A stretch of DNA of 32,134 nucleotides, from the NCBI GenBank assembly GCA_964459935.1, contig CAYWOP010000001.1, positions 1 through 32,134 of the forward strand, in the 5' to 3' direction. This document shows positions 179-30,600 of the stretch, piece after piece (the stretch's first letter is position 1; each line of letters opens with the position of its first letter). The stretch is from an uncultured Methanosarcinales archaeon (GTDB lineage: Archaea; Nanobdellota; Nanobdellia; Woesearchaeales; CAYNLP01). The translations under genes and the position numbers were made by a program. Below the pieces are notes generated by a model. The model saw only the letters and a program-made list of their open reading frames with translations, was not told where the DNA came from and made no database searches.

Positions 179-2098
<1,920 letters not shown>

Positions 2099-2179
2099 TC
2101 CAACTTCGTTCGGCGTACTCGGAATTTCTCCGTCGACAGAGTTCTTATCTTCTTAAATGGAGTTAGATGTAAGCACGCC

Positions 2180-3295
2180 ATGGACTGGTTTGCAGAACAT
2201 TTCGGCAGTCTGGCGTCTATCGCAGGAGTTTCCATGGCGGGACTGCTCTGCTATACCGCGTCTGAAGTCGATGAACCCGTGTACCACCGCGTTGCCAGGG
2301 GAGAAACGCTCCATGAGATATACAGGGACCGGGCAGAGAATATGGATTGGAGCTCATTCAAACGCTTGAACCGACATATAGCGGAGCAAAACGGCTCATA
2401 CGATCGATTGTACGTCGGAGATAGCGTGCGAATCTCGTCACCTCTCTCGGATGTTTCGCTAACGCACTGGAGTTCCGTTGACGATATTGTGGAACTCCTC
2501 ACAGAACATCCAGGACTCGGCGTTGATGCCCAACGCTTTAGCGAGGGGAACAGCCCAGCAGATCACGGTCTTGAGTACGAAACGGTGGACTTGCACACCA
2601 TTGATAACGTACGCATTTCAGGCTATTACACGCCTCGGAATGGGGAGGATGCGGTTGTACTGCTCCACGGCAAAGGGATGAACAACACGACCATGTTACA
2701 ATATACAGATTTCCTCGCCGAGTCGGGATACAGTGTCTTACAGATAGATTTTCGAGCACACGGTCATAGCTCTGGTACACGCGTAACATACGGGGCCAAA
2801 GAACGTCTCGACGTAAAAGCATGCATACAGTATCTACAAGATCGGGGCAAGGAAGACATAGGAGTTCTCGGCAACTCTCTCGGAGCGAGTACCGGCCTTA
2901 TATCCGCCGCCGACTACGAAGCGATCGATGCGGTCATCGCAGAATCCCCGTATGCTCAACTCGCCAACGTCGCTCATGCACCGGTATCTGATGGATCAAG
3001 AGTGGCCAAACACCTTTTCGTAAACACGCTCAGAACCTATGCTACCTTGTCTACCGGTATCGATTATTTTGACACTGACCCGCTCGACTACGCTCATGCC
3101 GTCGAAGAACCTGTGCTGTTGATACATGGAACCGAGGACAGGATTACCCGCCCTGAACATTCCAAAAACCTACACGAACGGGTTGCGTCTTCAGAACTCT
3201 GGCTTCGGCCTGGGAGAGGCCACGTACCGTCGCAGAACAGTTCATCAACTGTATATGAAAAACGCGTATTAGAGTTTTTCGCGAGTGCTTTGTAG
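2180..3295 (+). CDS. Membrane-anchored LysM domain protein fused to an alpha/beta-hydrolase (serine hydrolase) domain
   Basis: N-terminal hydrophobic segment (SLASIAGVSMAGLLCYTA). LysM-like stretch YHRVARGETLHEIYRDRAENMDW...LYVGDSVRI. Hydrolase motifs VVLLHGKG, nucleophile elbow GNSLGAS, LLIHGTEDRITRP, and a late GRGH. TTCTTAAAT about 27 nt upstream of the ATG. Confidence 0.8.
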   Translation: MDWFAEHFGSLASIAGVSMAGLLCYTASEVDEPVYHRVARGETLHEIYRDRAENMDWSSFKRLNRHIAEQNGSYDRLYVGDSVRISSPLSDVSLTHWSSVDDIVELLTEHPGLGVDAQRFSEGNSPADHGLEYETVDLHTIDNVRISGYYTPRNGEDAVVLLHGKGMNNTTMLQYTDFLAESGYSVLQIDFRAHGHSSGTRVTYGAKERLDVKACIQYLQDRGKEDIGVLGNSLGASTGLISAADYEAIDAVIAESPYAQLANVAHAPVSDGSRVAKHLFVNTLRTYATLSTGIDYFDTDPLDYAHAVEEPVLLIHGTEDRITRPEHSKNLHERVASSELWLRPGRGHVPSQNSSSTVYEKRVLEFFASAL

Positions 3296-3299
3296 GAAG

Positions 3300-6212
3300 T
3301 CATCTCGTGGGTCGTAGATAAGAAGCGGCAGAGAAAGTGTTCTGCACGTATTCATCAGCTCCGAGATCTATCTCTCCGTTAGCCTGCCAGGCGAACTGGT
3401 CCTGCAAACTGGATGGGGTCGAGGATTTCGCCTTCCAGTTAAAGATCCGAGGACCGTACGGCCAGCTCTTCACAGTTGCCTGCAATGCCTGTCTTCCTGC
3501 CCAGCCGTGCTGTTTCGCTTGCATATACCGTTTCGCCATCAGCAGCACGGTTGCTTTCCCAGCTGTCTCCATGTCGTGTATCGTTTCTTCGTTGATGTTC
3601 CACCGCTCTCGTTCCTCCTCGGTGAAATTTTCTTTTACTGTTATCTGGCTCGGTCCTCTGCTGACCTCACCTCTGCCCAGCCAGGAAGCCACGATATCCA
3701 GGGAACCTCGGTCAAAGGTATTGAAGAGGTAATCTGCCTTCCGCACACCATCGTTATTCGTCCGCCACTCGGTTTCCACCTTCATTATGCCGAAACTGAG
3801 TTCCGCCAGGGCGTTGATTTTCTGGTTTGCCAGACCGAAGCGCTTCTGCACATAGGGTGCGGCTTCGTCGATACCGATAACGTATTCTACGAGATCGGTG
3901 CGCAGCAGATGTGGGTTCGTGATTTTATAGTTGGCGTTGATATATTTATTTGCGGACTCGTGAGAGATCTCATTGTCGATGAAATCGTAAATGACGGAGG
4001 TGCTCGCCGCCCAGACAATCTGAGAGTGGGAGCGGTTTTGAGAGGTGAGTAAATCTCGTGCCCTATCGTAGTGAAGATCTCCTTTGATGTTGTGGGCTAT
4101 GACCCTCGTACCGTTCGGGCGTACTTCCGCGACGATACCGACATGGGTATTGAATGTGCGGCTCTCTTGAGATATCCCTTCTAGAAATGCCCTTGCCTGG
4201 TTAACGCTTTTTTCATAGTACAACCCTACTATATCGCCAGTCTGCAGCTTTTGCACATTAAAGTCTGTGCGTTGCGGGAAGAAAGATCTTACCTTGTCGG
4301 CATGTGCTGTGTTCAGCTTTGCATACACTGTTTCCTCGTCGTTATTGCTGCGGAGTTCCTTGAATTCTTTTCGCATCTTTTTATGCAGTTGCTGTATAGC
4401 GTTCTTATTGGATGCATAGATATCTGGGAAGAGGTTTAGCTTTTGCTCGGCACCTATCTTGCGAAGAATGTCCAGGACGTACTGGAACGTGCCTTCTTTA
4501 TTCGTCAGATTGTCCAGCATGTTCCAGGCATTACCTACGATTCCCAGGTTTGTGACAAATTCTCTACTCCAATCCGTCCGGTCGGCGAACGCGTTGATGA
4601 CCCACTTCGCGCAGCCGCGTTCGTCCACTTCTTCAGCGTTGATATGCATGGACTCTACACTTTCCACGGTCTCTCCTGAGGGATTCGAAGTAGTCGGTGA
4701 GGCCGCGGTTCCGGCGGTGACTGCGGCGAGCAGGGCGAAGCCGGTTACGAACTTCTTGGTGTGCTGTCGCAGTCCTTGGAGAACGTTCTTGGTCTCGCCG
4801 AAGGCTTTGTTCGCTTTCTTCTCTATCTTTTTCACGGCGCGCTGCGTCCGTTTCCTGTTCTTGTTCTCTTGGGTGGCCGTTTTCCGCACTTCTTTCTCGA
4901 CCTGTTCTGTTTCTCGCTCTAATCGCTGTTTTTCCTGGTCTGCCTGTGTTTCCAGATTCTTTGCTTTGCTTTGAATCTCCTCATCGGTCCTTGTCTCGGT
5001 TTCCACATCTTGAACAGTTTGTTCTACAGCCTCTTCTTGCTCCTCAATCTCCCTGTAGAAAGCATCGAGTTGCTCTTCTATATCTTCGAGTCGTTGCTCG
5101 TACTTGTTCTGTTCCAATGCCGTTTTCACGATGAGATTTGCCGAGGCGCGCACACGATGGTCGCATGCTTTCAAGAGATTATCTATTTGTTTGCTGAACT
5201 GCTGCACGAAGGTGCGAAGATCTTCGTCCTCATCAGTTTCTCCGTATACCTTGAGGATTTTTTCGAAATCTGTGACGAACTCTTTCAATATCTCGTTTTC
5301 CCGCTGTGATTCAGGATTCTGTACGTCCAGTTCGTCCAGTTGTTTCTTGATATGTTCGCACATGTGGATGAATGAGCTGACGCGTTGATGGAGTTCCTCC
5401 AGTGTGTCTTTGATATCCTCTGCATCCCCTGTGATCTGTTTCTTGAAACTATTCGTTCGTTGGATGACCTTCTGGAGTGACTTTTCGGATATATCCCGTT
5501 TGAACTCTTTCAGGGCTTGGACTTCTCGCTGTAAAACGCGATCCACGTCGCTCAGTAAGTCGTCGAATTCTTCGTTAATATCCTCGACAATCTCCGTTAT
5601 ATTCTGGTGGAACTGTTGGAGTTCTGTACTGAGCTGTTCGGTGTCGTCCACACTTCCGATCTCCTGCGTCGTAAGATCTGGTTTTGACGGGGTGGTTTGC
5701 GCGAACCGTCGGGCATGTTCCCCGAGTTCCTGTAACGGAAGGGCTTCGAGGGTCTTTATGAGTTGCGCTAGGAATGACTTCGTGATGGTTATTGGTTGGC
5801 GAATATCGTACAGAACTTCCCTGTGTTCTTTCTGTATTATCGATTCACAGAGGGAAACAATATCTCGTATATCGTCCAGCTCTGCTTCGAGCTGTTGACT
5901 ATAGCTGTTTAGCGTTTCCTCCTCCTGATGTTCTATGTCTTGGAGTTGCTGCAGCAGGGAATCAACTTCGTTCTCGTCCTTGGCATCCTCAATCCGATTT
6001 TCTAATCTCTTGGCCGTTTCCCCGAGGTCTTCGACTGTGGATTCTGTACTCTGTAAATCCTGCATCAATTCGTTGACATGGTGCGCTTCGTTGAGAAGTT
6101 GCTGCTCGTAATACTTCGTGTCTTGTCGTAGACGATCGCTACCTTTCCACGGGTTACGGAGTAGGGTTCCGTAGCGTTTGGCCCCTTCTGCCATGGTGGA
6201 AAGGATGCCCAT
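3300..6212 (-). CDS. Type II membrane protein: ~480-aa acidic coiled-coil N-terminus, one TM helix, and an external region with a papain-fold (NlpC/P60/CHAP-like) domain and a lytic-transglycosylase/lysozyme-like domain
   Basis: 970-aa ORF. The N-terminal half is rich in heptad-like E/K/Q/L sequence. TM helix FVTGFALLAAVTAGTAAS is encoded at ~4698-4751. Candidate Cys-His pair: RGCAKWVINAF (Cys codon 4611-4613) and GDIVGLYY...THVGIVAEV...RVIAHN (His codon 4143-4145). SLT-like IMKVETEW (Glu codon 3774-3776) followed by SRGPSQIT. The ORF call is strong; the domain calls rest on motifs only. Confidence 0.7.
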   Translation of the reverse strand: MGILSTMAEGAKRYGTLLRNPWKGSDRLRQDTKYYEQQLLNEAHHVNELMQDLQSTESTVEDLGETAKRLENRIEDAKDENEVDSLLQQLQDIEHQEEETLNSYSQQLEAELDDIRDIVSLCESIIQKEHREVLYDIRQPITITKSFLAQLIKTLEALPLQELGEHARRFAQTTPSKPDLTTQEIGSVDDTEQLSTELQQFHQNITEIVEDINEEFDDLLSDVDRVLQREVQALKEFKRDISEKSLQKVIQRTNSFKKQITGDAEDIKDTLEELHQRVSSFIHMCEHIKKQLDELDVQNPESQRENEILKEFVTDFEKILKVYGETDEDEDLRTFVQQFSKQIDNLLKACDHRVRASANLIVKTALEQNKYEQRLEDIEEQLDAFYREIEEQEEAVEQTVQDVETETRTDEEIQSKAKNLETQADQEKQRLERETEQVEKEVRKTATQENKNRKRTQRAVKKIEKKANKAFGETKNVLQGLRQHTKKFVTGFALLAAVTAGTAASPTTSNPSGETVESVESMHINAEEVDERGCAKWVINAFADRTDWSREFVTNLGIVGNAWNMLDNLTNKEGTFQYVLDILRKIGAEQKLNLFPDIYASNKNAIQQLHKKMRKEFKELRSNNDEETVYAKLNTAHADKVRSFFPQRTDFNVQKLQTGDIVGLYYEKSVNQARAFLEGISQESRTFNTHVGIVAEVRPNGTRVIAHNIKGDLHYDRARDLLTSQNRSHSQIVWAASTSVIYDFIDNEISHESANKYINANYKITNPHLLRTDLVEYVIGIDEAAPYVQKRFGLANQKINALAELSFGIMKVETEWRTNNDGVRKADYLFNTFDRGSLDIVASWLGRGEVSRGPSQITVKENFTEEERERWNINEETIHDMETAGKATVLLMAKRYMQAKQHGWAGRQALQATVKSWPYGPRIFNWKAKSSTPSSLQDQFAWQANGEIDLGADEYVQNTFSAASYLRPTR

Positions 6213-6235: not shown

Positions 6236-6277
6236 ATTTAAAGTTTCCTTAGATAGCTCACACCAACCTTTTTAAAA
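6236..6277. promoter_or_regulatory. Divergent promoter region between the 970-aa gene and rps3ae
   Basis: ATTTAAAG at 6236-6243, about 25 nt from the minus-strand ATG at 6212. TTTTTAAAA at 6269-6277, about 27 nt upstream of the plus-strand ATG at 6300. CTTAGATAGCT at 6248-6258 lies between them. Confidence 0.5.
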
Positions 6278-6299: not shown

Positions 6300-6857
6300 A
6301 TGCCAGCAACACTCCAAGCGAAGAAAAAGGAATGGCACCCGATCATCGCACCCGACCGGTTCGATAATGAAAAGATCTGTGAGAGCTACGTCGCCGACAG
6401 CGACGACCTCGAAGGTCGGAACGTCACCGTCAACATGCGCGACGTCACGGGTGACAAGCGCACGCAGAACATGGAGATCGATTTTCTCATCACCGACGTG
6501 CAAGAGGGCAAGGCCCGCACGATGGTACAGGGCTTCAAGGTCCTCGACGGCGCGATCAAACGCTACATCCGCAAAGGACGGAGTCGCGTGGACGATAGCT
6601 TCACCGCGACCACCGCGGACGGAAAGCGAGTCAGGGTCAAACCGCTCGTCGTCACGTACAACCGCGCTCCTGAAGAGGTACTGACGAAGATCCGCAAGCG
6701 GACGAAAGAACGCATCCGCGAGCTCTGCGAAGAGAATGCCTATGAAGGAGTGCTGGACAACGTGTTGAACTTCAACGTGCAGGACGAGCTGAAGGAAGAT
6801 TTGAGCGAACTCCACCCGGTGCGGAACTTCGAGATCCGCGCATTCAGACTTCTATGA
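6300..6857 (+). CDS. rps3ae: 30S ribosomal protein S3Ae (eS1)
   Basis: 185 aa. The N-terminus AKKKEWHPIIAPDRFDNEKICESYVAD and the overall basic profile match the archaeal S3Ae/eS1 family. Its 4-nt ATGA overlap with the next ORF fits the usual rps3ae neighbourhood. Confidence 0.92.
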   Translation: MPATLQAKKKEWHPIIAPDRFDNEKICESYVADSDDLEGRNVTVNMRDVTGDKRTQNMEIDFLITDVQEGKARTMVQGFKVLDGAIKRYIRKGRSRVDDSFTATTADGKRVRVKPLVVTYNRAPEEVLTKIRKRTKERIRELCEENAYEGVLDNVLNFNVQDELKEDLSELHPVRNFEIRAFRLL

Positions 6858-7159
6858 GCCTCTACGTCGCCGATTACGAACTCGAACTCGCGAAAGCACG
6901 CGACGCGATCCGGGAGAACGAAGCGGAGCGCGTCCTGTTGCACATGCCGGACGGGGTCAAGCCCAAGGCGGACGAGGTCATCCAGGAGCTCCAGTCCTCC
7001 GTCGAGCATGAGTTTGACGTACTGGTCTGGGGCGGTTCGTGCTTCGGCGCGTGCGACCTTCCGGTGGAAGCTGAAAATGTGGGTGTCGACCTACTGATAC
7101 ACTGGGGGCACAGTCGGTGGAAGGTGACCAAAGAGGAGCGACATCCGGACGACCTTTAA
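6854..7159 (+). pseudogene. dph2: Truncated diphthamide synthase Dph2 (only the N-terminal ~100 of ~330-340 codons)
   Basis: YELELAKARDAIRENEAERVLLHMPDGVKPKADEVIQEL...VLVWGGSCFGACDLPVEAENVGVDLLIHWGHS aligns by eye with the first ~85 residues of archaeal Dph2 (..RVLIQSPEGL..YGACD..ALIHLGHS). The ORF stops at 7157-7159 and the next 2.8 kb is filled by a convergent minus-strand gene. Only the first of the three Fe-S cysteines is present. Confidence 0.8.
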
Positions 7160-9951
7160 TCCATCTCCTCGAAGAACTCCTGTTTCTCCAACTCTTTCGT
7201 GTGATCTGTCAGGTGAGAATAGTGCTCGCGAGTGTACGCGGCCAGGTCCGACTCACTTCCCAACCGGTGATAGAGCTCTTTGATCTCCTGAAGGCGGTCC
7301 ACGAGTTCGTCCCGATCGGACCGGTCCTTCGCCTCGTGGGCGGCCCCGATGTGCTCGATGAGCTGGAACTTCGTATACAGCTTCTCCGCCTCCCTGCTCA
7401 ACGTTTCCTTGAACTCCTCATTCGCGTCCTCCGCTCGCATGTACACGTCCATCTTCTCCACTAGTTGATCATAGAGTTCGCGTGCTGCCTCGAAATCGGT
7501 CGCGTCCAGTCGATCATGTGTGGAACGGATGAGGTTGTAGAAGCCCGTCCTGTTCTTACGGTGGGTCTGGTCGATCCGCTCCTTCTCTTGTCCTGTCTCG
7601 TCCGTCGGGAAGACGTGTTGGGAGACGATGCGATGCGTCGTTTCTCGATTCCGCAGATAGGCGTAGTACCCTGTGAGTGTGAGTAGCAGTACAAGGCCGA
7701 CAACGGTCGCCGCCTTCGCAGACCCTCCGCTGCCCCCTGTTTGGGTCGCTACCTGTCCCGTCACCGCGTTCGTCTCGTTCCGCTCCGGCTTCGTCAGGAT
7801 GACCGTCGAGGACTGTTTCACATCCGCAAGACTGGTCACCGCGTCCACGCTGTACCACACGTCCTTTGCATCGAGCGATGCTTCCTCCCACTTCACCACG
7901 GGATCTTCTTCCAGTACCACCGGTTCCTCGGAGAAACGGATATCATCTACCGTTCTCGCAACGCTCTTCGGCACGTTCTCCACGACGACCGAGTCGTTCA
8001 CCACAGAGTCTGTGGTTATCGCTTTGTGGATTAAGGTGCGCTTGTTTGTTTTGACCGTGTCGTGATACGTTATCCGCCCTGTGAACGCGTCGAGCCGTAC
8101 CGAGGCCCGGTCCTGCAGTTGCCGCATGTTCTCGGTATATCCTTGGAGTTCCGCATCGGACATGTTGAAGCCGACGGTGATATGCTCCACCGCGTGTTTC
8201 ACCTGCCCGCTCATCGGTACGTGGTCGTGACGTACGCTACCGGTAATCTCAACCTCTTTCGGGACGGAACGCATGAACGTTTCCGACCGGTCCAGTATTG
8301 ACTCGATGCGTTCCTGCACCGTTCCCTTGTCCAGTTCTGCGAGTCTGAGCTTGGCGATCTCTTGTATCAGTCGTTGCATGTCATTCTTCGCCTGCTTGGC
8401 CTCCTCTATCAGGTCGAGTCGTGAAACGAGGGTTACCCGGCGTTGATTGTCGTATGACCGGAGTTGTTCGATCGCTTGCTCTATCGTGAAGACGTTCTGC
8501 TTCAGTATCTCACGTGTCTCGTTCAGTTTCCGTTGCGCGTCTCGCGACGGAGATCCTTCCTGCGGGGCGAAGGAGATCGACAGTTCGTCGCTTAACGGAC
8601 CGACGTTCCCGCCCTGATCGACGGGAGCGATCTTGTAATGATACGTGGCGTTGGGCAGGACGTTCCGGTCCACGAATGTCGTCTCGACCGTTTCTGTGTA
8701 CGTATCCGTCTTACCAACTCCCGGCTCGTTGGAGCGGTAGATGGTGAAGTGGTCGACGGTCTCCCCGCTGTAGTACCAGGTGAGCTTGGCTGAGAGGTTC
8801 GCTTTCTCCACGGATGCGCTCTCTACCGGGGGTGGTGGTTCTGTGTCCACGAGGAACATCTTACCGCTCGTTATCACGGTCCCCTTGAGATCGGTACGGT
8901 CCGTGGCGGTGAACGAGAAGCTCCCGACATCACTGTTCACGTCCTCCGGTATGGAGATATAGCCTTGCCAGTCCGTTCCGGAGCCTGAGAGTGACACGTC
9001 TTTGATATCGCCGTCGTTGCTGAAGCTGTACTCCAGCGTTGGTTCGAGCACCGGCTCCGAAGTAGTGAGGCGGACCTCGTACGTGCCGGCGTTGAGCCGT
9101 CCGTCTCCGTCTTCGATCGCGATACGCGCCGTTGGTCGTAGATTCGCGTGGAACGTTACGGGTTTCGGCGTGCCGGTATTGCCCCACTGATCCTTGCACG
9201 CGACATAGAGTGTGTAGTTCCCCTGCGTATCGCGGTCCAGCAACTGCGTGTGGTTGGTTCCTCCGGTCTGCGAGAACTCGTTTTCCAGTGTTCCGTATGC
9301 TCCGTTAGTGGTGCCGTAGCGACAGGTCGCTATCTCGTCCGTCGCGACTTCTACGCGGATGGGCGTCCCTCGGAACGAACCGTTCGGTGAGCGCATATCG
9401 ATGGTCGGAGGACTCGTATCTAGCATGAAAACGGTGCCGGCATTTGCGGTGGCGTTATCGAGTTGGCAGGAGACGTTGAGCTGGTACACGCCGTCTTCTA
9501 GGAGCACGGTGGTCGTCCAGTGCTCGTCGTCTCTGGTGAGGTCATCCGAGGTGGAGTCAAGGCTGTACTGACATGAATCGGCCCGCCAGTTCGTCGACGC
9601 TCGGATAGCTATCTCTTTGCTCCCGACCGTGTCCGTTTCGGGTCGTTCGATGAACGCTCGGAACGGGACGTCGAGTACTTGCACGGTGCGGTTCTTGCTG
9701 GACTCGTTTGTGCGGAACGTGAACGTGTACGTACCGCTGTCCTGACGACCGGTCTCCCACTGGTAGCTTTTATTCGTGGATACGATGCTCCCGTCGCGCA
9801 GGATGGTGTGGTTCTCCCCGGTCGAGTTGATGAAGCGTGCAGTGACCGTCTCACCTTCGCGCACCGTCGTATTGATATGCGTGTCGAATGCGTGGATCGT
9901 GGGTAGGAGAAGTAGCAATCCGAGCAGGACTGGCGTGGCGCGTTGGTTCAT
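7156..9951 (-). CDS. Type I membrane surface protein with Ig-like and FN3 domains, an extracellular coiled-coil, a TM anchor and a ~170-aa helical cytoplasmic tail
   Basis: 931 aa. Signal peptide MNQRATPVLLGLLLLLPTIHA. Ig-like modules with paired Cys (SCQYSLDS...VSCQLDN; TCRYGTTN...YVACKDQWGN). FN3-like KLTWYYSGETVDHFTIYRSNEPG...YHYKIAPVDQGGNVG. TM helix AATVVGLVLLLTLTGYYAYL followed by RNR. Many N-x-S/T sequons. Confidence 0.85.
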   Translation of the reverse strand: MNQRATPVLLGLLLLLPTIHAFDTHINTTVREGETVTARFINSTGENHTILRDGSIVSTNKSYQWETGRQDSGTYTFTFRTNESSKNRTVQVLDVPFRAFIERPETDTVGSKEIAIRASTNWRADSCQYSLDSTSDDLTRDDEHWTTTVLLEDGVYQLNVSCQLDNATANAGTVFMLDTSPPTIDMRSPNGSFRGTPIRVEVATDEIATCRYGTTNGAYGTLENEFSQTGGTNHTQLLDRDTQGNYTLYVACKDQWGNTGTPKPVTFHANLRPTARIAIEDGDGRLNAGTYEVRLTTSEPVLEPTLEYSFSNDGDIKDVSLSGSGTDWQGYISIPEDVNSDVGSFSFTATDRTDLKGTVITSGKMFLVDTEPPPPVESASVEKANLSAKLTWYYSGETVDHFTIYRSNEPGVGKTDTYTETVETTFVDRNVLPNATYHYKIAPVDQGGNVGPLSDELSISFAPQEGSPSRDAQRKLNETREILKQNVFTIEQAIEQLRSYDNQRRVTLVSRLDLIEEAKQAKNDMQRLIQEIAKLRLAELDKGTVQERIESILDRSETFMRSVPKEVEITGSVRHDHVPMSGQVKHAVEHITVGFNMSDAELQGYTENMRQLQDRASVRLDAFTGRITYHDTVKTNKRTLIHKAITTDSVVNDSVVVENVPKSVARTVDDIRFSEEPVVLEEDPVVKWEEASLDAKDVWYSVDAVTSLADVKQSSTVILTKPERNETNAVTGQVATQTGGSGGSAKAATVVGLVLLLTLTGYYAYLRNRETTHRIVSQHVFPTDETGQEKERIDQTHRKNRTGFYNLIRSTHDRLDATDFEAARELYDQLVEKMDVYMRAEDANEEFKETLSREAEKLYTKFQLIEHIGAAHEAKDRSDRDELVDRLQEIKELYHRLGSESDLAAYTREHYSHLTDHTKELEKQEFFEEMD

Positions 9952-18805: not shown

Positions 18806-19300
18806 ATGGAGTACTCGACGACCATCGGCGACGTAACACAGCACGATTCAGAGCACCACGTTTCTCTTCACGTAGAGAAAAGCGCCGCAGCGACGGCACA
18901 GGAAACCGGTATCGGGCGAGAGGATCGATCCGGAGAAACACGCATACCGCTTGCAGTCTTCAGAAGCGATGCCGGACCGCTCCAAGCACTCGTCACATAC
19001 CTGCACGAAGAACAAGGATATGGATTCACCGAGATAGGTGAACTGCTCGACCGCGACCCTCGCACGATCTGGAGCGCATACGACCAGTGCGATGCATCCG
19101 CGGCGGATAGCGGGGAGGAGGACGTTCGGCTCACAGCGCTGGTAAGAGATGAGTTGACGATACTCCAGTCCTTAGTGTTCCATCTCAAAGCGACCAAAAC
19201 CTATCAAGAGATTGCAGATCTGCTCGACAAGCACTACCAGACCGTCTGGACCGTGCATCGACGAGCGGAGGAGAAGCTGGAGGTGGTGGATGATGCGTAG
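18806..19300 (+). CDS. Tandem helix-turn-helix regulator (two sigma-70 region 4 / LuxR-GerE-like HTH units)
   Basis: 164 aa, no signal peptide. Unit 1: LQALVTYLHEEQGYGFTEIGELLDRDPRTIWSAY. Unit 2: LTILQSLVFHLKATKTYQEIADLLDKHYQTVWTVHRRAEEKL. Family assignment is by motif only. Confidence 0.7.
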   Translation: MEYSTTIGDVTQHDSEHHVSLHVEKSAAATAQETGIGREDRSGETRIPLAVFRSDAGPLQALVTYLHEEQGYGFTEIGELLDRDPRTIWSAYDQCDASAADSGEEDVRLTALVRDELTILQSLVFHLKATKTYQEIADLLDKHYQTVWTVHRRAEEKLEVVDDA

Positions 19301-21199: not shown

Positions 21200-21835
21200 G
21201 TGGACGAAGAAACGCTCTTCACAGCGAGTAAGTGGACGATTCTCGAACAACTGCAGGACGATCCCCAGAGTCCGAAACACCTCGCTGAAGAACTCGGCAC
21301 CTCCGTGGCCAACATTAGCCAGCAACTCCGGCTCCTCGAGATGGCGGACCTCGTCGAGAGCGAACGCGTCTCGAACAGGGAGAAGGGACAGCCACGTGTC
21401 CTGTACTCCCTGGCCGGAGACCACTCTTACCTGATCAGCGCGGCGAACGGCTTCGTCGAGAAGCAGTTCCACGAACTCAGCGACCGGAACAAAGCGATCC
21501 TCCGCATCTGGTTATCCGACATGAATCCGGAAGACCGGTACTTACTCGAAAAATCGTTCTGGCTCGTCGAACCGCACATCGATGATATAACAGGACTCTA
21601 TCTCGACACGACGAAGCGTCAGTTAGAGCTGACAGTCGTCACGGTCTCAGACTCGCTGGAAGACGAGCTCGACGATCTTAATATCGAAGACAGGAATGAA
21701 CGCGAAGCGACCATCACGATCACCACCGTGTCCGTCCAGTCCTTCCTGGACGAGGACGACACGGAACGGTACTACGCGATCTACGACACACGAGAGTTGC
21801 GGCAGAAACGACACAGGGAGGGAAACGATGAGTAA
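21200..21835 (+). CDS. ArsR/TrmB-like winged-helix transcriptional regulator with an uncharacterised C-terminal domain
   Basis: 211 aa from GTG. wHTH: KWTILEQLQDDPQSPKHLAEELGTSVANISQQLRLLEMADLVESERV...GQPRVLYSL. The stop overlaps the A3 start (ATGAGTAA). Confidence 0.8.
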   Translation: MDEETLFTASKWTILEQLQDDPQSPKHLAEELGTSVANISQQLRLLEMADLVESERVSNREKGQPRVLYSLAGDHSYLISAANGFVEKQFHELSDRNKAILRIWLSDMNPEDRYLLEKSFWLVEPHIDDITGLYLDTTKRQLELTVVTVSDSLEDELDDLNIEDRNEREATITITTVSVQSFLDEDDTERYYAIYDTRELRQKRHREGNDE

Positions 21836-24192: not shown

Positions 24193-24273
24193 ATGATGCA
24201 ACCACACAACGCTGACAAGGAAGCGAGGAACGAGATCGAACGCCTCGCCCGCGAGTGCGTCATGTACAATTAA
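24193..24273 (+). CDS. Candidate 26-aa micro-ORF with a strong Shine-Dalgarno sequence, directly after C2
   Basis: AGGAGGTGA at 24184-24192, then ATGATG. It encodes MMQPHNADKEARNEIERLARECVMYN. Its stop shares a TTAA with the convergent 1111-aa gene stop. No homology is recognisable. Confidence 0.25.
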   Translation: MMQPHNADKEARNEIERLARECVMYN

Positions 24274-27200
24274 GGCGGGTCGGCCTGGAAGACCACCGTC
24301 CCGTTGCACGTATTACCCCACTGCAACGAGGGTTCCAGGCTTGGTATGAAGAGTTGCCAGAACGTCGAGTTCTCATTCTGCTGCGTCGTCGCCAGTGATT
24401 CCACGGATAGACCGGAATCTTCATACGTACTTGAGAGGTTCTCCTTATCCGTGAAGGCCACGCCTGGCGTCAGCGCGTACCGCTCGTTCTCGATCGAGAT
24501 ATTGTTATTCGGACACTCCATCGCAAAGCCCGAACCGGACTGAGAGTCATTCCCTCCATAACCGAGCACAGACAGGTTGAAACGCGTGTTCCCGATATTA
24601 GTGACATTCACCTTCTGCTCCGCAGACGTCGCGTTTTGCTGCACTTCACCGTAATCGATGACGGATTCCGACACGTTCAACGCGAACAACGGATTGACCG
24701 TTACACCGTCCGTGTCGCTGTCCGTACTCTCGCCGTCTGTCGTCTCAGCCCTGCACGTCCATGTGTTATTCTCCGCGTAGTACGACACGCTCACGTTGCA
24801 GTGATACACCGCGGAGTCTCCAGCGGCTTGTTCTTGCGAGCAGGATTCGTTCGTGTAGTGGTTTGTATCGTCGTCGGGAGCGTCTGCGGAAACGCTATTG
24901 GAGAAGAATGTCGCGTTCACCAGGTTGATGTCACCGGCGCCTTCGCTGTCCTCAACGGACACGTTACAGAGTACCGTACGCCGGGTCCCGGCGTTCAGGT
25001 CGATCTCGTTGTCAGGAGAGCTGATATCATCGTCCACGGTCACTCCGGTCACGACCGGTTGTCCCTCCGCAATCCCCCCACCAGTGCTCCCGTTGAAGTA
25101 CGTGCAGAGCGGTTGGAACCCTGTCTTGAACTCCAACTGGGTGAAGTCGATGAACGATGTCTGTGCACCTCCGGTGTTCTTCGTCAGTTGGTACCGCAGG
25201 GAGACCTGGTTCGCCTCGGTCCTGTTCGTGATCTCATCTGACAGATCACACCGGTCCGTCACGTCAGTCCCGCTCGTATCCAGGTCGGCACAGGGTACCT
25301 CTTGGTATCCGGAGCCGTTGTACCATAATAGGGTGGGGCTATCTAGGTCAGCGTCCTCCGCGTGTTCCAACGTCCAGTTCACCTCCTGTATCTGAATACC
25401 CTCCGCGAAGCTGTTCGTGTAGTTGATCTCCCAGTAAAATACTTGTCCGTTTCCGCCGGACGCGGTGATCGTATCATCAACATCATCCGATACGTTGATC
25501 GCGGAGAGGTCTACACTGCTCCCATCGGTGGATTTCTTTCCCCTGCTTGGTGACGTGTTCGATCGGGTCGTGTTGATCTCGGAGATGTTGAAGACGGCGG
25601 TGTCGTTCAACTGGGAGTTCGTGTTATCGGTAGCGTTGACCGTGTAGATACCGTTGCACGTGTCCGTCGTGTTCCAGAACGTAGCGAAATCACCGGTGTT
25701 GTTCGTGGAAACGTTCTCTGGGAAGCTCGGCCCGATATCACCCGTGTCGTTATCGTAGATCGCGTACTCCACCGTGTCGGAGCGGGTGAAGTTGAGTCCC
25801 GAGATGTTCACGTCCTCGTTCCTTGCGTAGAGGAACTTTTCCGTCAACACAGTTGCGTTCCGCTCCGTGATATTGAAGGAAGCGGTCGCGTTGAGCCGTG
25901 GATAGGTCTGATCGGTCGCGGTCACGTTCGTCCTGCCGAGCGGCGCTGCGTAGGAGAGGTTGCGCACCGTCGTGAACGCACCGTTCGAGTCAGTCTCAGT
26001 TGTGAACTTGTCGGTCGTGTCGTCGCTGAAGGTGAACAGTACCTCTACGGTGGAGTTGGGGCTGTAGTCCGTCCCGGAGACGGTGACGGCTGCTCCCTGC
26101 GGATACCTTTCTTTATCGGTGGAGACTGTGGTCGGGGGTAGTTCGACCGTGAACGAGGCGGTGTCGTTCTTTGAAGCGTCGCTGGTCTGGTACGTGATGA
26201 GGTTGTACGTGCCTGTGGGATCGCTGTAGTTGAGCAAAAGCGTATCATTGGCAACGCCGTTCGGGTCCGTCGTTTCGGTGTTCACTGTGGTAGTGCCGTC
26301 GCTGTACGTGTAGTTGAACGTGAGTTCCGTGGACGCGTCAAAGTTCTCAGCCGTCGCAGATACCGCATCGCCGAGTTCATACGTGTTCGCATCGGTGGTG
26401 ACGATAGGGTCTGACACGTTTATGGTGATGTTCCTACGCACGCTCGCGTTTTCAAACCCATTCGAGTCTGTACAATTCCCACCCCATGTATGGTTGCCAT
26501 TGGTCAGTGACGTGGTGAACTCGAGCGTGGTATCCTCCGCAGGGCTTGTGTTCGTCGCGCGGGGGGAGTCGTCGATGATGAGCTCGCACGAGTCAAGTCC
26601 GGTTTGTGCGTCGCTCGCGTTGAAGCTGAACGTGACGTCGCTGGTCTGCGACACGGTGTCGTTCGCTGGTTGTTCCAGGTTGATAGCGGGCGGTTTCGTG
26701 TCGATCGTGATATTATATGTTGAACTGTTTCCTTGATTACTGTTCCCGTCGAGGCAGGTAACCTGCCACGTGTGCGGACCGTCCGGTATATCGGAGAGGT
26801 TGAACTCGTTCTGCGTCCCGTTCACCGGGTCGTTGTCCGTCGCGTTCTCCTGGTCGTCGAAGCGCAGCGTGCACGACGAGAGGTTCCTGTTATCTTCCGG
26901 TGTGTAGGTGAACGTGACGTTGCCGTCGAGGTCGAACGTGTCGTTCGCCGGGCTGTCGAGGGTGACGTTCGGCGGTGTCTGGTCCGGTAACTGGTAGGTC
27001 ACGTTGTACCTGAGCACGTCCCACGATATCGTGGCCGGACCGCCCTGTTGCGTGGATTTTGACACTTCGGACTTGATCTTGGCGCGCGTTCCGGACGAGC
27101 CGAAGAAGTTCCCGCACGTCCAGTTCTCAGTGGACGTTACCTCGGTGCAGGTCACGCCGGGTTCCGTCGTGGTTCCCGGACAGGAAGCCGTGACCGCGTT

Positions 27201-27605
27201 CCATGTCCCGTCCCCGTCGTTGTCCACGCTGATATCACAGTCGTCCGTATCTGCCGAGTCAGCCCACCACTCATAGCAGACATACACTCTTTGCACGGAG
27301 GTGCAGTTCGCTATCGAACTGTTGTAATCCGTGGTACGGACGCCCGCGTAGCCGTTCTGATCGGCGTCCCACGTTTCCTCTCCGCCGTCGTCACACCGAA
27401 GCAAATCGTTTCCCGTGCCCGATCCACACGCCGCGGGGTATGTCCCATCGCAGGCACTCCCGAACGAGCCTTTCGTCGCCCTGTCTTCGGCACTGCATGC
27501 TTGGATGCCGACGCGCTCCACGGTTGTATTCGCCGCGATCACGAGGATCACAGCTACGGATAGGACGAAGGCTAGCAGTATCCTTACCGGGTCGATCCGC
27601 CTCAT
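24270..27605 (-). CDS. Giant secreted or N-terminally anchored surface protein (1111 aa) with Cys-rich, Ig-like and beta-sandwich repeats and a C-terminal C-family module
   Basis: N-terminal MRRIDPVRILLAFVLSVAVILVIAA. Two Ig-like modules with paired Cys (VTLDSPANDT...SCTLRFDD...WQVTCLDGNSN; INLEQPANDT...SCELIIDD...WGGNCTDSNGF). The last 264 aa (24270-25064) align with C1/C2: DINLVNATFF, NHYTNESC, YHCNVSVSYYAENNTW, ALNVSESVIDYGEV, NVTNIGNTRFNLSVLGYGG, GFAMEC, CNGTVVFQADPP. Confidence 0.9.
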   Translation of the reverse strand: MRRIDPVRILLAFVLSVAVILVIAANTTVERVGIQACSAEDRATKGSFGSACDGTYPAACGSGTGNDLLRCDDGGEETWDADQNGYAGVRTTDYNSSIANCTSVQRVYVCYEWWADSADTDDCDISVDNDGDGTWNAVTASCPGTTTEPGVTCTEVTSTENWTCGNFFGSSGTRAKIKSEVSKSTQQGGPATISWDVLRYNVTYQLPDQTPPNVTLDSPANDTFDLDGNVTFTYTPEDNRNLSSCTLRFDDQENATDNDPVNGTQNEFNLSDIPDGPHTWQVTCLDGNSNQGNSSTYNITIDTKPPAINLEQPANDTVSQTSDVTFSFNASDAQTGLDSCELIIDDSPRATNTSPAEDTTLEFTTSLTNGNHTWGGNCTDSNGFENASVRRNITINVSDPIVTTDANTYELGDAVSATAENFDASTELTFNYTYSDGTTTVNTETTDPNGVANDTLLLNYSDPTGTYNLITYQTSDASKNDTASFTVELPPTTVSTDKERYPQGAAVTVSGTDYSPNSTVEVLFTFSDDTTDKFTTETDSNGAFTTVRNLSYAAPLGRTNVTATDQTYPRLNATASFNITERNATVLTEKFLYARNEDVNISGLNFTRSDTVEYAIYDNDTGDIGPSFPENVSTNNTGDFATFWNTTDTCNGIYTVNATDNTNSQLNDTAVFNISEINTTRSNTSPSRGKKSTDGSSVDLSAINVSDDVDDTITASGGNGQVFYWEINYTNSFAEGIQIQEVNWTLEHAEDADLDSPTLLWYNGSGYQEVPCADLDTSGTDVTDRCDLSDEITNRTEANQVSLRYQLTKNTGGAQTSFIDFTQLEFKTGFQPLCTYFNGSTGGGIAEGQPVVTGVTVDDDISSPDNEIDLNAGTRRTVLCNVSVEDSEGAGDINLVNATFFSNSVSADAPDDDTNHYTNESCSQEQAAGDSAVYHCNVSVSYYAENNTWTCRAETTDGESTDSDTDGVTVNPLFALNVSESVIDYGEVQQNATSAEQKVNVTNIGNTRFNLSVLGYGGNDSQSGSGFAMECPNNNISIENERYALTPGVAFTDKENLSSTYEDSGLSVESLATTQQNENSTFWQLFIPSLEPSLQWGNTCNGTVVFQADPP

Positions 27606-30600
27606 CGTAGTTCGTAGTAGAACGTGACTTGGTCTTCGCTGTCGCTGTTCAACGTCGCTAGGGGGCGTGGGAACTTGACCTCGTAGTCGTAGACGCCGTA
27701 CTGCCCCTGCGTCTCCTGGTTGATCTTCGTGATGAACGCGAGGTCTTGCGTTCCGTTATACTGAGAGTTCCCGTCGCTCGTGTCCCAGAGGATGCCGGTC
27801 TGGAAGGACGAGGTATTCGTACTGTTGATGACCGGTACGTTCTCCACCGGCTCGCCGAAGACCCGGAACGTTCTCGTGTCCTTGGGCGTGCCCGAGTCGG
27901 TCCACGTGACCGTCAGATTATCTTGGTGGTCAGTCATGTTCAACGCCCCGTCCGCCTCCTGGAAGTCCGTAGTCGCGGTGTCATTCGTCGTGTTCCTGGT
28001 CAGCGCTTGGACCTGGGTGAAATCGACGTCGCGGTCGCTCTCCGTTACTACTATATTTCCTGTGGTGTTGCGGGTCAAGGTGAAGTTGATGAGCGTGTCC
28101 GTTTCGTTGTTCCCTAAGGTCCACCGCCCACTGAGGTTGCCGTAGTTCACCTGGTAGCTCGGCACGTCGAACGTCGTGTTCGCTTCGTTATTATCTTCTC
28201 GGGTCTCGTTGACCGTTCCGTTGGTCGAGAACGGCGTGTCGGCCCTCACAAAAACATTGCGCGGTCCGGGTCCGGGGACGGTCCACGAGACGTTCACGCT
28301 CCTGTTCTCTCCAACGTTCAGTCTGTCGATCGTTTGTGCCGTATCGATCTGTGTCCCGCCCGTGTCGGGGTCGCCCTCGTAGAACTCCACGGTGAACGAT
28401 GTGGTCGCGTTCACGTTGCCCTGGTTCGTCACCAGGCTTGAGACGTTGATCGTCTCGCCCTCGCTCGCGTCGGACTCGTTCACGCTGAAATTGATGAAAC
28501 TCCGGTTGACGAAGAGGTCCGGGTTGGTGATGTTCACGGTGAAGTTCGCATCGGCGAACGCACTGTTGTTCGCCACGTCCGTGCATTCAACGTTCCACCG
28601 GTATGTGCCCTGGCCGAGGTCTGCGGTGAAGTTGTTCGTCTGGTCGTTGTCCGGGTTTGTGTCGTTCTGTGTGGCTTGGAACACGCTGTTGTTATCCCGG
28701 TAGAACGTGCAGTAGTCCAGGTTCGCATCACTGGGCGTGTACTCGAACGTGACCTGTCCTACGGGTTTGAACGCGCCGTCAGCTGGTGATTCGAGCGTGA
28801 CCAACGGATCCGTCGTGTCCTCTTCGTACGTGACGGTGGCGCCGAAGAAGTCCGTGCCGTAGTTGATGCTGTTCGCCGTGCCGGTGTAGCGGAACCGTGA
28901 TCGCATCTGGAGTTCATCGTTGAAAGCACTGCGGTTGGGCAGGCCGTTCCCCGATTCAGTAAAGTTACATTTGACCGTGTCCGGTGCTGTGGTGCTGGAC
29001 TGGGTGAACGTCTGACTGCAGGCTTCGAGCCAGTTCCCGCTGGACTCGTTCAACCACTGGATGCTGAGGAATCCTTCGTTCGTGTCCTGGTACTTCACGT
29101 GCGTGACGTTCGCTGAGAGGATAGTCGAACCTGGTGGTATGGAGGTGTTTGTCATGTTGAAGTACACGTCGTTGTAGTCTTGGTTCTTGTCGAATCTGCC
29201 GTGCTCTTCATAGTTTCCATCGCTCTCGTTCACGTTCCCTGCTGTACAGTCGCCTTGGGGGTCGCTGCACTGGAATGGGACTATATTTGGTGTGAACCGG
29301 GTGATGTTCACCGTGATGTTCCTGGTCTCCGACGCTCCGGTGTTCCCGGCCGGGTCGGTACAGTTCACCCGCCACGTGTACTCCCCGTCGTCTACGCCGT
29401 TGAGTGAGAACCCTTGGTCTGTGTCCTTTGTGATCGTATCGTCGGTTTGGTTTTCCTGCCCGTCGAAGATGAGCGCGCACCGGTCGATGTCGCTCGTGTC
29501 GCTCACGTTATACGTGAAGCTGAGATCGCCGTCCGTGTCCGTGGTGTCGTTCGCCGGGCTTATGGCTGTCACGTTGGGCGTGACCGTATCATTCACAAAG
29601 ATAGTATGTGTTTCGTACGTGGAGGTGAAGTTCTGGTTCCCGCTGTAGGTGAAGTTCACCGTCACGTTGCCGGGAGCGTCAATGGAGAGGTTCGCCTGGA
29701 CCGGTGAAGTTTCATTTGTAAGGAGTGTTCCGTCGCGGTACAGGCTCGCGTTGCCCGTGCCCCTGAGGAGGTACCCGGTGGCGTTGACGATGGTGCTCTC
29801 GTTCACCGTTATATTACCGTCGGTCCCGTTGAGTGTGAGGTTGACCGACGCGCTCGCTTTGTCGATGGTGTAGGTCTGCAGCGGTGTCCTGTTCTCGTTG
29901 TTCTGTGTATCGTTCGCGATCGACCGCCAGCTGTAGTTCCCCGCGGCGAGTCCGGAGTCGTTGTAAAAGTAGACGGAACCGTCGTTGCCCGTTGCGGTGT
30001 CGTTCCGGAACGTGCCGGTGAAGTTGTGTTCGAACAGGACCGTGTCCACTTCCCCATTATCCGTCCACGTCGTGTTGAACTGGTAGGTCCGAGTGGCGTT
30101 GTACGTGGCGGGGCTTTGCGGAGCTGCTGTTATATTATCATACACGGGGGGTGTTGAGTCGATCTTCGTGGTGAAGTTGTACTCTTGCGAGGTGTTCGTG
30201 TTCCCCGCGGCGTCGGTGCTGTTGACCTTGTAATAGTAGGTCGTGTTGGGTTCCAGACCGGTGAGTAGGATGCTGTGGTTCTTGACCAGTGTTCCATCGG
30301 TCACGCTCTCGGTGTACGTTCCGGGACTGGTGCCGTACCGTACGCCGCTGTCCGCGTCCTCGTCCGTTTTCCACGTGATGCTGGCGGAGCTGTCCTCGAC
30401 GTTGTCCGCGGAGATATTACTGAGTGCGGGCGGTGTTGTATCCGTGGTGGTATCCGTCTTTGCCGTGTCGTTGACTTCCGTGTCATTTACATTGCCCTGG
30501 TCGTCGGCGGTCAGCACGGTCAGTGTGTAGTTCGTATCGCTGGACAGGCTGGTCACGTTGTAATAGTCTTGCGTGGTGTTCGTCAAAAAGTTTCCATCGA

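Follow-up and report, generated by a model that had tools for sequence, protein, structure and literature searches.

We describe a gene on the archaeal contig CAYWOP010000001.1 that, on our reading (probability about 0.72), encodes a type II membrane-anchored, surface-exposed and bifunctional hydrolase of the cell-wall type, with an activity that we predict from sequence and model. The gene occupies positions 3300-6212 on the minus strand of the 32,134-nucleotide stretch of DNA that was analyzed (the window), which is a complete contig, and codes for 970 amino acids. The outer part of the protein would be a fixed, very divergent cassette of two enzymes, a cysteine peptidase or amidase (Cys534-His690-His707) followed by a domain of the SLT/GH23 type, that is, resembling the lytic transglycosylases (Glu813). 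An earlier note on this DNA had flagged positions 3300-4697, which correspond to residues 506-970 plus the stop codon, and had read the two enzyme types from a handful of motifs. These are all present in the protein: RGCAKWV (residues 532-538), GDIVGLYY (659-666), THVGIVAEV (689-697), RVIAHN (703-708), IMKVETEW (809-816) and SRGPSQIT (851-858).

The features of the gene, in the numbering of the window and from the N-terminus of the protein to its C-terminus, are as follows.

3300-6212, minus strand: complete coding sequence of 970 amino acids, from an ATG start to the stop codon at 3300-3302, taken from the list of open reading frames and backed by full-length homologues
4752-6212, minus strand: N-terminal helical, coiled-coil-like domain, residues 1-487, predicted to be cytoplasmic
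4701-4751, minus strand: hydrophobic segment FVTGFALLAAVTAGTAA, residues 488-504, predicted type II signal-anchor (N-terminus in, C-terminus out)
4635-4700, minus strand: linker rich in Ser, Thr, Pro and Glu, residues 505-526, read from the sequence and of low confidence at the start of the structure model
3969-4634, minus strand: predicted papain-like cysteine peptidase or amidase domain of the NlpC/P60-CHAP-Amidase_6 clan, residues ~527-748
4611-4613, minus strand: codon of Cys534 (GCAKW), predicted nucleophile
4287-4496, minus strand: helical insert between the Cys and His blocks, residues ~573-642
4143-4145, minus strand: codon of His690 (THVG), predicted general base
4089-4094, minus strand: codons of His707 and Asn708 (AHNI), predicted third catalytic residue and a conserved Asn
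3309-3899, minus strand: predicted SLT/GH23 lysozyme-like (lytic-transglycosylase-like) domain, residues ~772-968
3771-3776, minus strand: codons of Glu813 and Thr814 (VETEW), predicted single catalytic acid/base and the Ser/Thr of SLT motif I
3639-3662, minus strand: SRGPSQIT, residues 851-858, putative equivalent of SLT motif II (GLMQ)
3453-3467, minus strand: SWPYG, residues 916-920, putative equivalent of SLT motif III (A/S-Y-N-x-G)

An unannotated family with a small archaeal branch

A word-indexed search of 5.8 billion proteins returned a single relative, P0001, whether we queried with the single sequence or with an 18-sequence profile. P0001 has 779 amino acids, is 34% identical to the present protein (BLASTP E 5e-84) and shares its architecture. 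An exhaustive HMMER search of 1.84 billion cluster representatives with a two-sequence profile reached much further, yielding 428 relatives at E <= 1e-3 and 115 at E <= 1e-10. By these searches, this is a family of about 430 representative proteins that was previously unannotated. Profile searches of the PDB with two family alignments (A1 and A2) gave no meaningful match, and a metagenome scan with A1 located no further locus besides the contig of P0001 itself.

Within the family, a close subfamily comprises five other full-length representatives of the same architecture (P0001 and P0003-P0006; 779-888 amino acids) and three short proteins that carry the first enzyme domain alone (P0007-P0009). 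Its full-length members are only ~28-46% identical to one another. A larger and more distant group surrounds it: 74 of the best 150 relatives combine the Cys, His and SLT-like blocks. The earlier note had called for a survey of the domain combination, and across these relatives the helical N-terminal domain, the anchor and the cassette occur together in six representatives only, all of them in archaeal-looking contigs. All conservation counts given below refer to the corresponding columns in the 150 HMMER relatives, with the number of relatives that cover each column as denominator. For structural comparisons we used an AlphaFold2 model of the ectodomain built from 18 diverse family members (mean predicted local distance difference test score, pLDDT, 82.4); an earlier model from a two-sequence alignment was unusable (pLDDT 37).

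A papain-like domain with conserved Cys and His residues

Conservation, Pfam matches of relatives, Foldseek searches and the model together support the assignment of the first half of the ectodomain as a papain-like Cys-His-His domain whose nearest families are Amidase_6 and CHAP. The Cys and the two His residues that the earlier note had singled out as catalytic candidates are conserved among homologues to a degree that supports its proposal. Cys534 is a Cys in all 125 relatives that cover it, and His690 is a His in all 146. The column of His707 holds His in 141 of 146 relatives and Asp in 4, and the following Asn708 is kept in 132 of 146. In the model these residues are arranged as the assignment predicts. 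Cys534 is the first residue of a helix (model residues 14-26) and thus sits at its N-terminus, while His690 and His707 lie on consecutive strands (model residues 170-177 and 183-189), His690 being the first residue of the former.

The stretch between the Cys and His blocks is unusually long, as the earlier note had remarked. It spans 156 residues from Cys534 to His690, ~70 of which (residues 573-642) are missing in the wider family. The rows of the wider family are gapped opposite residues ~620-642 (A2 columns ~160-200), and alignments to these relatives break into separate matches for the Cys block and the His block that leave the profile positions in between unmatched. In the model, the insert consists largely of two long helices (model residues 75-101 and 106-122; block-mean pLDDT 81-97). 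Of this insert, at least the second half, or the part that corresponds to the helices, is present in the close subfamily.

Relatives with recognizable Pfam domains point to the same clan. The match of P0063 to Amidase_6 reaches 26.8 bits, above the curated cut-off of 23.2, and covers residues 182-327, including its Cys and His blocks. Weaker Amidase_6 matches were found in P0041, P0062, P0065 and P0083, and a Peptidase_C92 match in P0018. CHAP matches 5 of the 74 relatives (best E 1.7e-5), falling on the His block in P0009 and on the Cys region in P0103. Taken together, CHAP, Amidase_6 and C92 match 9 of the 74, and all those that were located on the protein lie on the family blocks; wherever match positions were checked, no other enzyme family lay on the papain-like blocks. 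PF00877, the NlpC/P60 family proper, had no match among the 74 relatives. Foldseek searches with the model retrieved CHAP and NlpC/P60 proteins as well as 4FDY, a bifunctional hydrolase.

A second half resembling SLT/GH23 enzymes

Sequence profiles and the model likewise support an SLT/GH23-like, lysozyme-like fold for the second half of the ectodomain. When we aligned 113 family sequences by hhalign with a reference alignment of MltE, Slt70, MltC and MltD from the annotated E. coli K-12 genome, the match reached a probability of 80.9% (P 1.4e-6) over 109 columns; the negative controls of the cross-comparison stayed below 1%. All three SLT motifs fall into register, the family pattern rES-f, S-G-x-x-Q-I-K and l-S-Y-N-x-G lying opposite ES, G-L-M-Q and A-Y-N-x-G of the reference. 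This agrees with the SLT signature and catalytic Glu recognized in the earlier note. Glu813, which aligns with the ES column of the reference, is a Glu in 112 of 113 relatives, and the adjacent position is Ser or Thr in all 113. Motifs II and III take the forms S-x-G-x-x-Q/K and Y/H/W-N-x-G in the family, among which SRGPSQ of the present protein is acceptable; its Ser851 is kept in 113 of 113 relatives.

Glu813 is the sole conserved acidic position of the second half, which suits a single-acid mechanism, as in lytic transglycosylases, better than the mechanism of lysozymes with two carboxylates, a distinction that is established for GH23 and that we carry over to this protein. A single catalytic Glu is the hallmark of the lytic transglycosylases, which cleave the beta-1,4 bond between N-acetylmuramic acid (MurNAc) and N-acetylglucosamine (GlcNAc).

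In the model, Glu813 lies near the end of a long helix that is followed by a small hairpin bearing SRGPSQ. The top Foldseek matches in the PDB were MltC, phiKZ gp144, MltE and Slt, at probabilities of 0.85-0.97 and target-normalized template modelling (TM) scores up to 0.52, and a comparison with viral models (BFVD) returned phage lytic transglycosylases at probabilities of 0.98-0.99. Pfam SLT matches fall on the equivalent block of P0018, P0046 and P0083; none of them reaches the gathering score, the best having an E-value of 8.8e-4 and 19.3 versus 21.3 bits. Both halves of the ectodomain thus find profile or structure matches to the folds named in the earlier note, the second through hhalign and Foldseek and the first through Foldseek and the Pfam matches of its relatives.

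A helical N-terminal domain and a predicted membrane anchor

The earlier note had placed a coiled coil of ~480 amino acids on the cytoplasmic side of the membrane. Its helical character is supported by the sequence: residues 1-487 show a 3.5-residue hydrophobic periodicity (z = 12.4 against shuffles) and are ~35% charged, and the first 533 amino acids contain 8 Pro and 15 Gly. The periodicity comes in several blocks separated by stretches of low periodicity, so the domain may form a helical bundle instead of one long coiled coil, and both the continuity of the coil and its cytoplasmic location remain presumptive. Library searches with residues 1-487 returned weak matches to coiled-coil families only, and a relative of this domain was not found in the PDB. 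Homologous versions of this domain are found in all six full-length proteins of the subfamily, and the other 144 relatives scored, of the 150 listed, lack it. The subfamily shares in it a motif, ...EY-LE-I-x-YDIR-x-P, which reads ...IIQKEHREVLYDIRQP in the present protein, with YDIRQP at residues 135-140 (window positions 5793-5810).

The segment FVTGFALLAAVTAGTAA is the sole hydrophobic segment of the 970-amino acid protein, which lacks an N-terminal signal sequence. The single transmembrane helix of the earlier note accordingly stands as one segment, at a place where each of the five full-length homologues has a hydrophobic stretch too (three of the five pass a Kyte-Doolittle threshold of 1.6), with the qualification that it is moderately hydrophobic (Kyte-Doolittle ~1.4 by hand tally over residues 488-506). 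Basic residues (RQHTKK) precede the anchor and acidic residues follow it, which fits an orientation with the N-terminus inside and the C-terminus outside. The most economical reading would thus be a type II topology in which the N-terminus is cytoplasmic and the C-terminal 465 amino acids face outward.

Relatives in phages and in peptidoglycan-binding proteins

Many of the distant relatives carry modules that bind or act on murein. PG_binding_1 occurs in 27 of the 74, with scores up to 92.6 bits, and LysM, SH3_3, YkuD and the murein-active Phage_lysozyme module occur as well. One relative with LysM, P0154 (1,185 amino acids), is encoded between the genes of a portal protein and a crAss-type major capsid protein on two 100.6-kb contigs, where we confirmed the cassette in the DNA. 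The standard bacterial code does not give the recorded protein for this gene (L085, 10001-13558; L086, 2935-6492). The cassette is detected when stop codons are read through, which suggests a stop-codon reassignment in these crAss-like contigs. P0012 combines the cassette with ART-PolyVal, an ADP-ribosyltransferase of polyvalent proteins that is typical of polyvalent phage or conjugative proteins, and the very large P0015 combines it with a second muramidase of the Phage_lysozyme type. Judged by these domains, both are multi-effector proteins of phages or mobile elements. P0014 adjoins an Amidase_3 gene and large unannotated open reading frames. The best structural match in BFVD is a LysM protein of Virus NIOZ-UU157 (448 aligned columns).

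Searches of viral genomes gave a narrower picture. Neither the ectodomain nor P0022 had a tblastn match in GenBank phage genomes. A scan of IMG/VR with P0154 returned 80 loci whose common part is its first ~40 residues only, and the fetched flanks of these 80 loci contained no hydrolase cassette; we therefore do not claim a wide viral distribution.

The subfamily members, by contrast, are encoded on cellular contigs, with genes of archaeal type around them: deoxyhypusine synthase near P0001, RIO1 near P0004 and an archaellin gene adjoining P0008. The gene of P0001 is flanked by genes for a Peptidase_M48 protein and for a phosphodiester glycosidase (NAGPA). A LemA-family gene lies 1.1 kb from P0001 and ~8 kb from P0004 (L001, 8181-13182; L084, 330-1740); no LemA was seen among the large open reading frames of the window.

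The gene, its presumed promoter and its surroundings

The gene stands alone. The gene of ribosomal protein S3Ae (6300-6857; Pfam E 4e-38) diverges from it, and an alpha/beta-hydrolase gene (2180-3295, plus strand) converges on it, their stop codons lying 4 bp apart. The divergent intergenic region measures 87 bp and holds two TATA-like boxes, read from the sequence:

6236-6242, minus strand: TATA-like box TTTAAAT, ~27 nucleotides 5' of the ATG, a putative promoter element
~6266-6277: mirror-image T/A-rich box, ~27 nucleotides 5' of the divergent S3Ae start

This arrangement suggests leaderless archaeal transcripts on both sides, with the boxes as presumed promoters.

A prophage or mobile-element origin of the locus was considered and rejected because the gene sits between gyrB and the S3Ae gene. 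In composition, the region of the gene (window 2000-6000) has a G+C content of 0.485-0.516, versus 0.545-0.584 for the remaining contig, and the ectodomain has an isoelectric point (pI) of 6.3, versus ~4.05 for two giant proteins of the contig that bear immunoglobulin (Ig)-like domains. The low G+C content and the near-neutral ectodomain are compatible with a recent foreign origin or with a charge dictated by the substrate. Together with the occurrence of the cassette in phages and bacteria, these atypical values suggest that the cassette was acquired horizontally.

Archaeal markers on the contig are the S3Ae gene, a fragment of a diphthamide-synthase (Dph2) gene and the TATA-like boxes. Nearly every protein of the contig is strongly acidic (pI ~4.05-5.2), which fits a halophile of the salt-in type. 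In a collection of species-representative genomes, the nearest relative of GyrB (239-2098, plus strand) comes from a 'Nanoarchaeota' metagenome-assembled genome (65% identity), and the other nearest relatives are bacterial (Bacillota, Saprospiraceae and other Bacteroidota; 53-60%). These matches are weakly informative on placement and are compatible with a bacterial-type gyrase in an archaeon. Taking the contig as a whole, a halophile of the DPANN type is a plausible source organism, presumably a symbiont.

Several further observations on the contig stand apart from the gene. The Dph2 fragment is an open reading frame of 101 amino acids (6854-7159, plus strand) that matches the first ~59 of 302 profile positions (Pfam E 1.3e-12) and runs into an opposite-strand gene for a 931-amino acid protein; it looks like a truncated or frameshifted gene, or like an assembly problem. 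The 931-amino acid protein (7156-9951, minus strand) is hydrophobic at its N-terminus and again in a stretch close to the C-terminal end, and has no family match. The two giant proteins, of 1,111 and 1,489 amino acids (24270-27605 and 27602-32071, both minus strand), are encoded with overlapping stop and start codons, bear Ig-like, fn3 and purple-acid-phosphatase-N domains, and are probably surface proteins. Proteins such as these three are typical of small symbiotic archaea. Between 14794 and 24185 (plus strand), ~10 open reading frames on the same strand, most of them very acidic (pI ~4.05-4.7), possibly constitute an integrated element. The first has a sub-threshold DUF5752 match, and apart from helix-turn-helix proteins at 18806-19300 and 21200-21835 the block has no informative family match. 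The convergent alpha/beta-hydrolase is of the Hydrolase_4/Peptidase_S9 type and has an N-terminal hydrophobic segment. It contains a LysM-like stretch, YHRVARGETLHEIY...LYVGDSVRI, at residues 36-85, where the sole Pfam match to LysM is weak (E 0.062; 13.7 bits versus a cut-off of 20.9).

Proposed mechanism and alternatives

We propose that the cassette is a tool for the local opening of a cell envelope. In the relatives, the papain-like domain would cut the peptide or amide part of murein, and in phage virion, polyvalent and peptidoglycan-binding proteins the cassette as a whole would be expected to open a local hole in the murein. In the archaeal lineage, probably of the DPANN type, the cassette would work without a murein-binding module and would instead be joined to a membrane anchor and to a lineage-specific, presumably cytoplasmic helical domain of ~330-490 amino acids. 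The enzyme would in this way stay attached to the surface of its cell, with only things in contact with the cell within its reach. Its target would most likely be the wall of a neighbouring bacterium or another envelope polymer that contains GlcNAc or peptide, and the cytoplasmic domain may oligomerize or position the enzyme. The analysis shows the reading frame, its family, the conservation of residues, the relationships by fold and profile, and the phage and archaeal contexts of the relatives, whereas for the orientation in the membrane, catalysis and its substrate, a horizontal origin and the function of the N-terminal domain the proposal goes by inference.

Several points weigh against it. 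The ectodomain (465 amino acids) has no meaningful direct match in Pfam, NCBIfam, PHROGs or PDB sequences, the close subfamily likewise lacks a direct library match, and all family assignments are transitive or based on profiles or structures. An hhalign comparison of 134 family sequences with E. coli MepS, YafL, MepH and NlpC gave a probability of 0.1% and no match, on which ground we rejected membership in NlpC/P60 proper (PF00877) and therefore placed the domain in the NlpC/P60-CHAP-Amidase_6 clan. The 'NlpC/P60/CHAP-type peptidase' of the earlier note consequently holds at the level of the clan, with Amidase_6 and CHAP nearest, and not for NlpC/P60 itself. A four-sequence CHAP reference gave a local, non-significant alignment only (P ~0.04), and the Foldseek E-values in the PDB are weak (at least 0.15). 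The anchor was not flagged in a hydrophobicity scan at the Kyte-Doolittle threshold of 1.6. In the SLT-like half, Thr858 replaces a Lys present in 95% of relatives, and Pro918, the sole Pro in its column, replaces the motif III Asn present in 96%; because of these deviations, the glycosidase activity of this copy may be altered or weakened. Finally, the archaeal subfamily shows no recognizable murein-binding domain, and the hosts to be expected for a nanohaloarchaeon, should the organism be one, are without murein.

Some of these points can be turned into a different and more speculative reading, the functional idea of the earlier note, in which the protein breaches the envelope of a host, here taken to be an archaeon. 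At the contact site between symbiont and host it would cut a non-murein polymer (S-layer glycans, a poly-gamma-glutamyl or heteropolysaccharide wall, or pseudomurein), and the helical domain would tie it to an intracellular contact apparatus. A non-murein polymer is conceivable because the archaeal subfamily has shed all murein-binding modules and has gained a helical insert beside the active-site Cys, and because SLT motifs II and III are altered in this copy, which could reflect a changed substrate. Surface anchoring in place of secretion would suit such a role, as would the enzymology of the two groups, since gamma-glutamyl hydrolases belong to the NlpC/P60 clan and some GH23 members are chitinases. 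The acidic, halophile-type proteome and the giant surface proteins are compatible with a nanohaloarchaeon-like symbiont, and the 'Nanoarchaeota' affinity of GyrB points the same way. Yet we found no link between the protein and a host or a contact site, and the symbiotic identity of the organism is itself presumed. The relatives with recognizable targeting domains all target murein, and no conserved partner genes surround the homologues, LemA alone recurring (P0001 and P0004). We regard this reading as unlikely. An elaboration of it is more doubtful again: a contact-dependent envelope-opening device of DPANN-type symbionts, in which a phage-derived cutter, re-targeted to the non-murein polymer of an archaeal host through the helical insert and the altered SLT motifs, would be linked mechanically or regulatorily through its cytoplasmic domain to the machinery that connects symbiont and host.

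The cassette might also be set free. Cleavage of the Ser/Thr/Pro-rich linker, which is flexible and directly follows the anchor, would release a two-enzyme ectodomain that diffuses and lyses neighbouring bacteria, as a weapon or as a feeding enzyme. The relatives of the cassette are directed at murein, there are documented cases of archaeal peptidoglycan hydrolases killing bacteria (PMC12352652), and transglycosylase proteins of DPANN archaea have been proposed to act on bacterial walls (PMC8204110). A conserved domain of ~330-490 amino acids on the cytoplasmic side and an anchor would, on the other hand, be an odd and costly route to a secreted toxin. A signal peptidase site or other evidence of processing was not found, a cell-wall-binding domain is absent, and no immunity or secretion genes lie nearby, so that we rate release as a somewhat slimmer prospect than the breaching of a host. 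Decay is the least probable of the alternatives, and in our view improbable outright: the protein would be a catalytically dead, phage-derived remnant that serves only as an adhesin or scaffold or is heading to loss. The unique substitutions at two conserved SLT positions, the atypical G+C content and pI, and the extreme rarity of the architecture (six full-length proteins among 1.84 billion, and the single contig found in the metagenome scan) could be read in this way. The Cys, both His, the Glu and the adjacent Thr are, however, kept here and in every full-length member despite the low identity among them, which argues for purifying selection on catalysis. In addition, the reading frame is intact, the promoter is plausible, and the setting between gyrB and the S3Ae gene is chromosomal and not that of a provirus. 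The surface-anchored, bifunctional hydrolase is our preferred explanation.

Relation to known systems

On this best-supported reading, and by analogy, the protein would act in the manner of the enzymes with which phage virions and Gram-positive conjugation systems open a wall locally. The closest parallels in domain make-up are CwlT (ICEBs1; S. aureus PDB 4FDY), TraG (pIP501) and PrgK (pCF10), which we take to be bifunctional, membrane-anchored wall hydrolases of Gram-positive conjugation. They likewise combine a lysozyme or SLT glycosidase with an NlpC/P60 or CHAP peptidase in one polypeptide, carry an N-terminal anchor and open the wall locally, and 4FDY is among the top Foldseek matches of our model (probability 0.90, 209 columns). 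Unlike in these proteins, the domain order here is reversed, with the peptidase first and the SLT domain second, a cytoplasmic helical domain precedes the anchor, no genes of a type IV or other secretion system lie nearby, and the organism is an archaeon. The phage virion-associated and polyvalent hydrolases, such as P0154 and the LysM protein of Virus NIOZ-UU157, have the same cassette with the same invariant residues. They differ in being 1,000-2,500 amino acids long, in carrying LysM or PG_binding_1 and sometimes Phage_lysozyme or ART-PolyVal, and in lacking the N-terminal domain and anchor of the archaeal proteins.

At the level of the single domains, the likeness to family 1 lytic transglycosylases (SLT PF01464, GH23; MltE, MltC, Slt70 and phiKZ gp144) comprises the lysozyme-like helical fold, a helix that ends with a single catalytic Glu and a following Ser or Thr, a small hairpin bearing motif II (S/G-x-G-x-x-Q) and, in most family members, motif III (Y-N-x-G). 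The family departs from them by a sequence identity of ~9-14%, below every direct library threshold, and by an extra ~20-40 residues between motifs I and II; the present copy departs further, with the motif III Asn changed to Pro and the Lys after motif II changed to Thr. With the Peptidase_CA clan (PF12671, PF05257, PF05708 and PF00877) the first domain shares a Cys at the N-terminus of a helix, a strand of GD followed by hydrophobic residues, a His that starts the next strand and a third polar residue (His) on the strand after that. The spacing between Cys and His is ~50-60 residues in canonical members of the clan, ~110 in the family and 156 here. In the family, this gap holds a conserved G-N-A-W...N-I...GG...Y-N element, to which the present protein adds its helical insert. 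The CHAP references that we used have E-Q-N in the aligned stretch, in contrast to the His-Asn that provides the third residue here.

Wall-degrading enzymes of this kind have precedents in archaea. Large extracellular proteins with murein-like lytic-transglycosylase domains were reported from Woese- and Pacearchaeota, for which an action on bacterial walls or a part in cell-cell interaction was suggested (PMC8204110), and the killing of bacteria by archaeal peptidoglycan hydrolases has been demonstrated (PMC12352652). The principle is therefore not new, and the earlier note went too far in calling such enzymes unexpected in organisms without murein, since murein-type transglycosylase proteins of DPANN archaea had already been published. 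Compared by their description, the published DPANN proteins share with ours a surface-exposed domain of the murein-transglycosylase type. They are extracellular proteins of up to 3,000 amino acids in which a standard transglycosylase domain is recognizable, whereas the present protein has 970 amino acids, is missed by standard models and adds a cysteine peptidase and a cytoplasmic helical domain. Our literature search turned up no paper that treats the family, a cytoplasmic helical domain fused to it, or enzymes of this sort in nanohaloarchaea. What is new here is the rare architecture, the candidate defined at the level of residues and the unannotated family; the concept itself was already known.

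Significance

To our knowledge, how ultrasmall symbiotic archaea attach to, open or feed on other cells is largely unknown, and we know of very few candidate effector proteins of these organisms that are defined at the level of residues. The protein described here offers a testable candidate effector with named predicted catalytic residues (Cys534, His690, His707 and Glu813), and its lineage-specific cytoplasmic domain could serve to identify interaction partners. Its family connects hydrolases of phage virions with proteins that carry peptidoglycan-binding domains and with a rare branch in archaea. Standard annotation overlooks these enzymes altogether, and surveys of archaea and of crAss-like phages therefore probably undercount wall-degrading enzymes.

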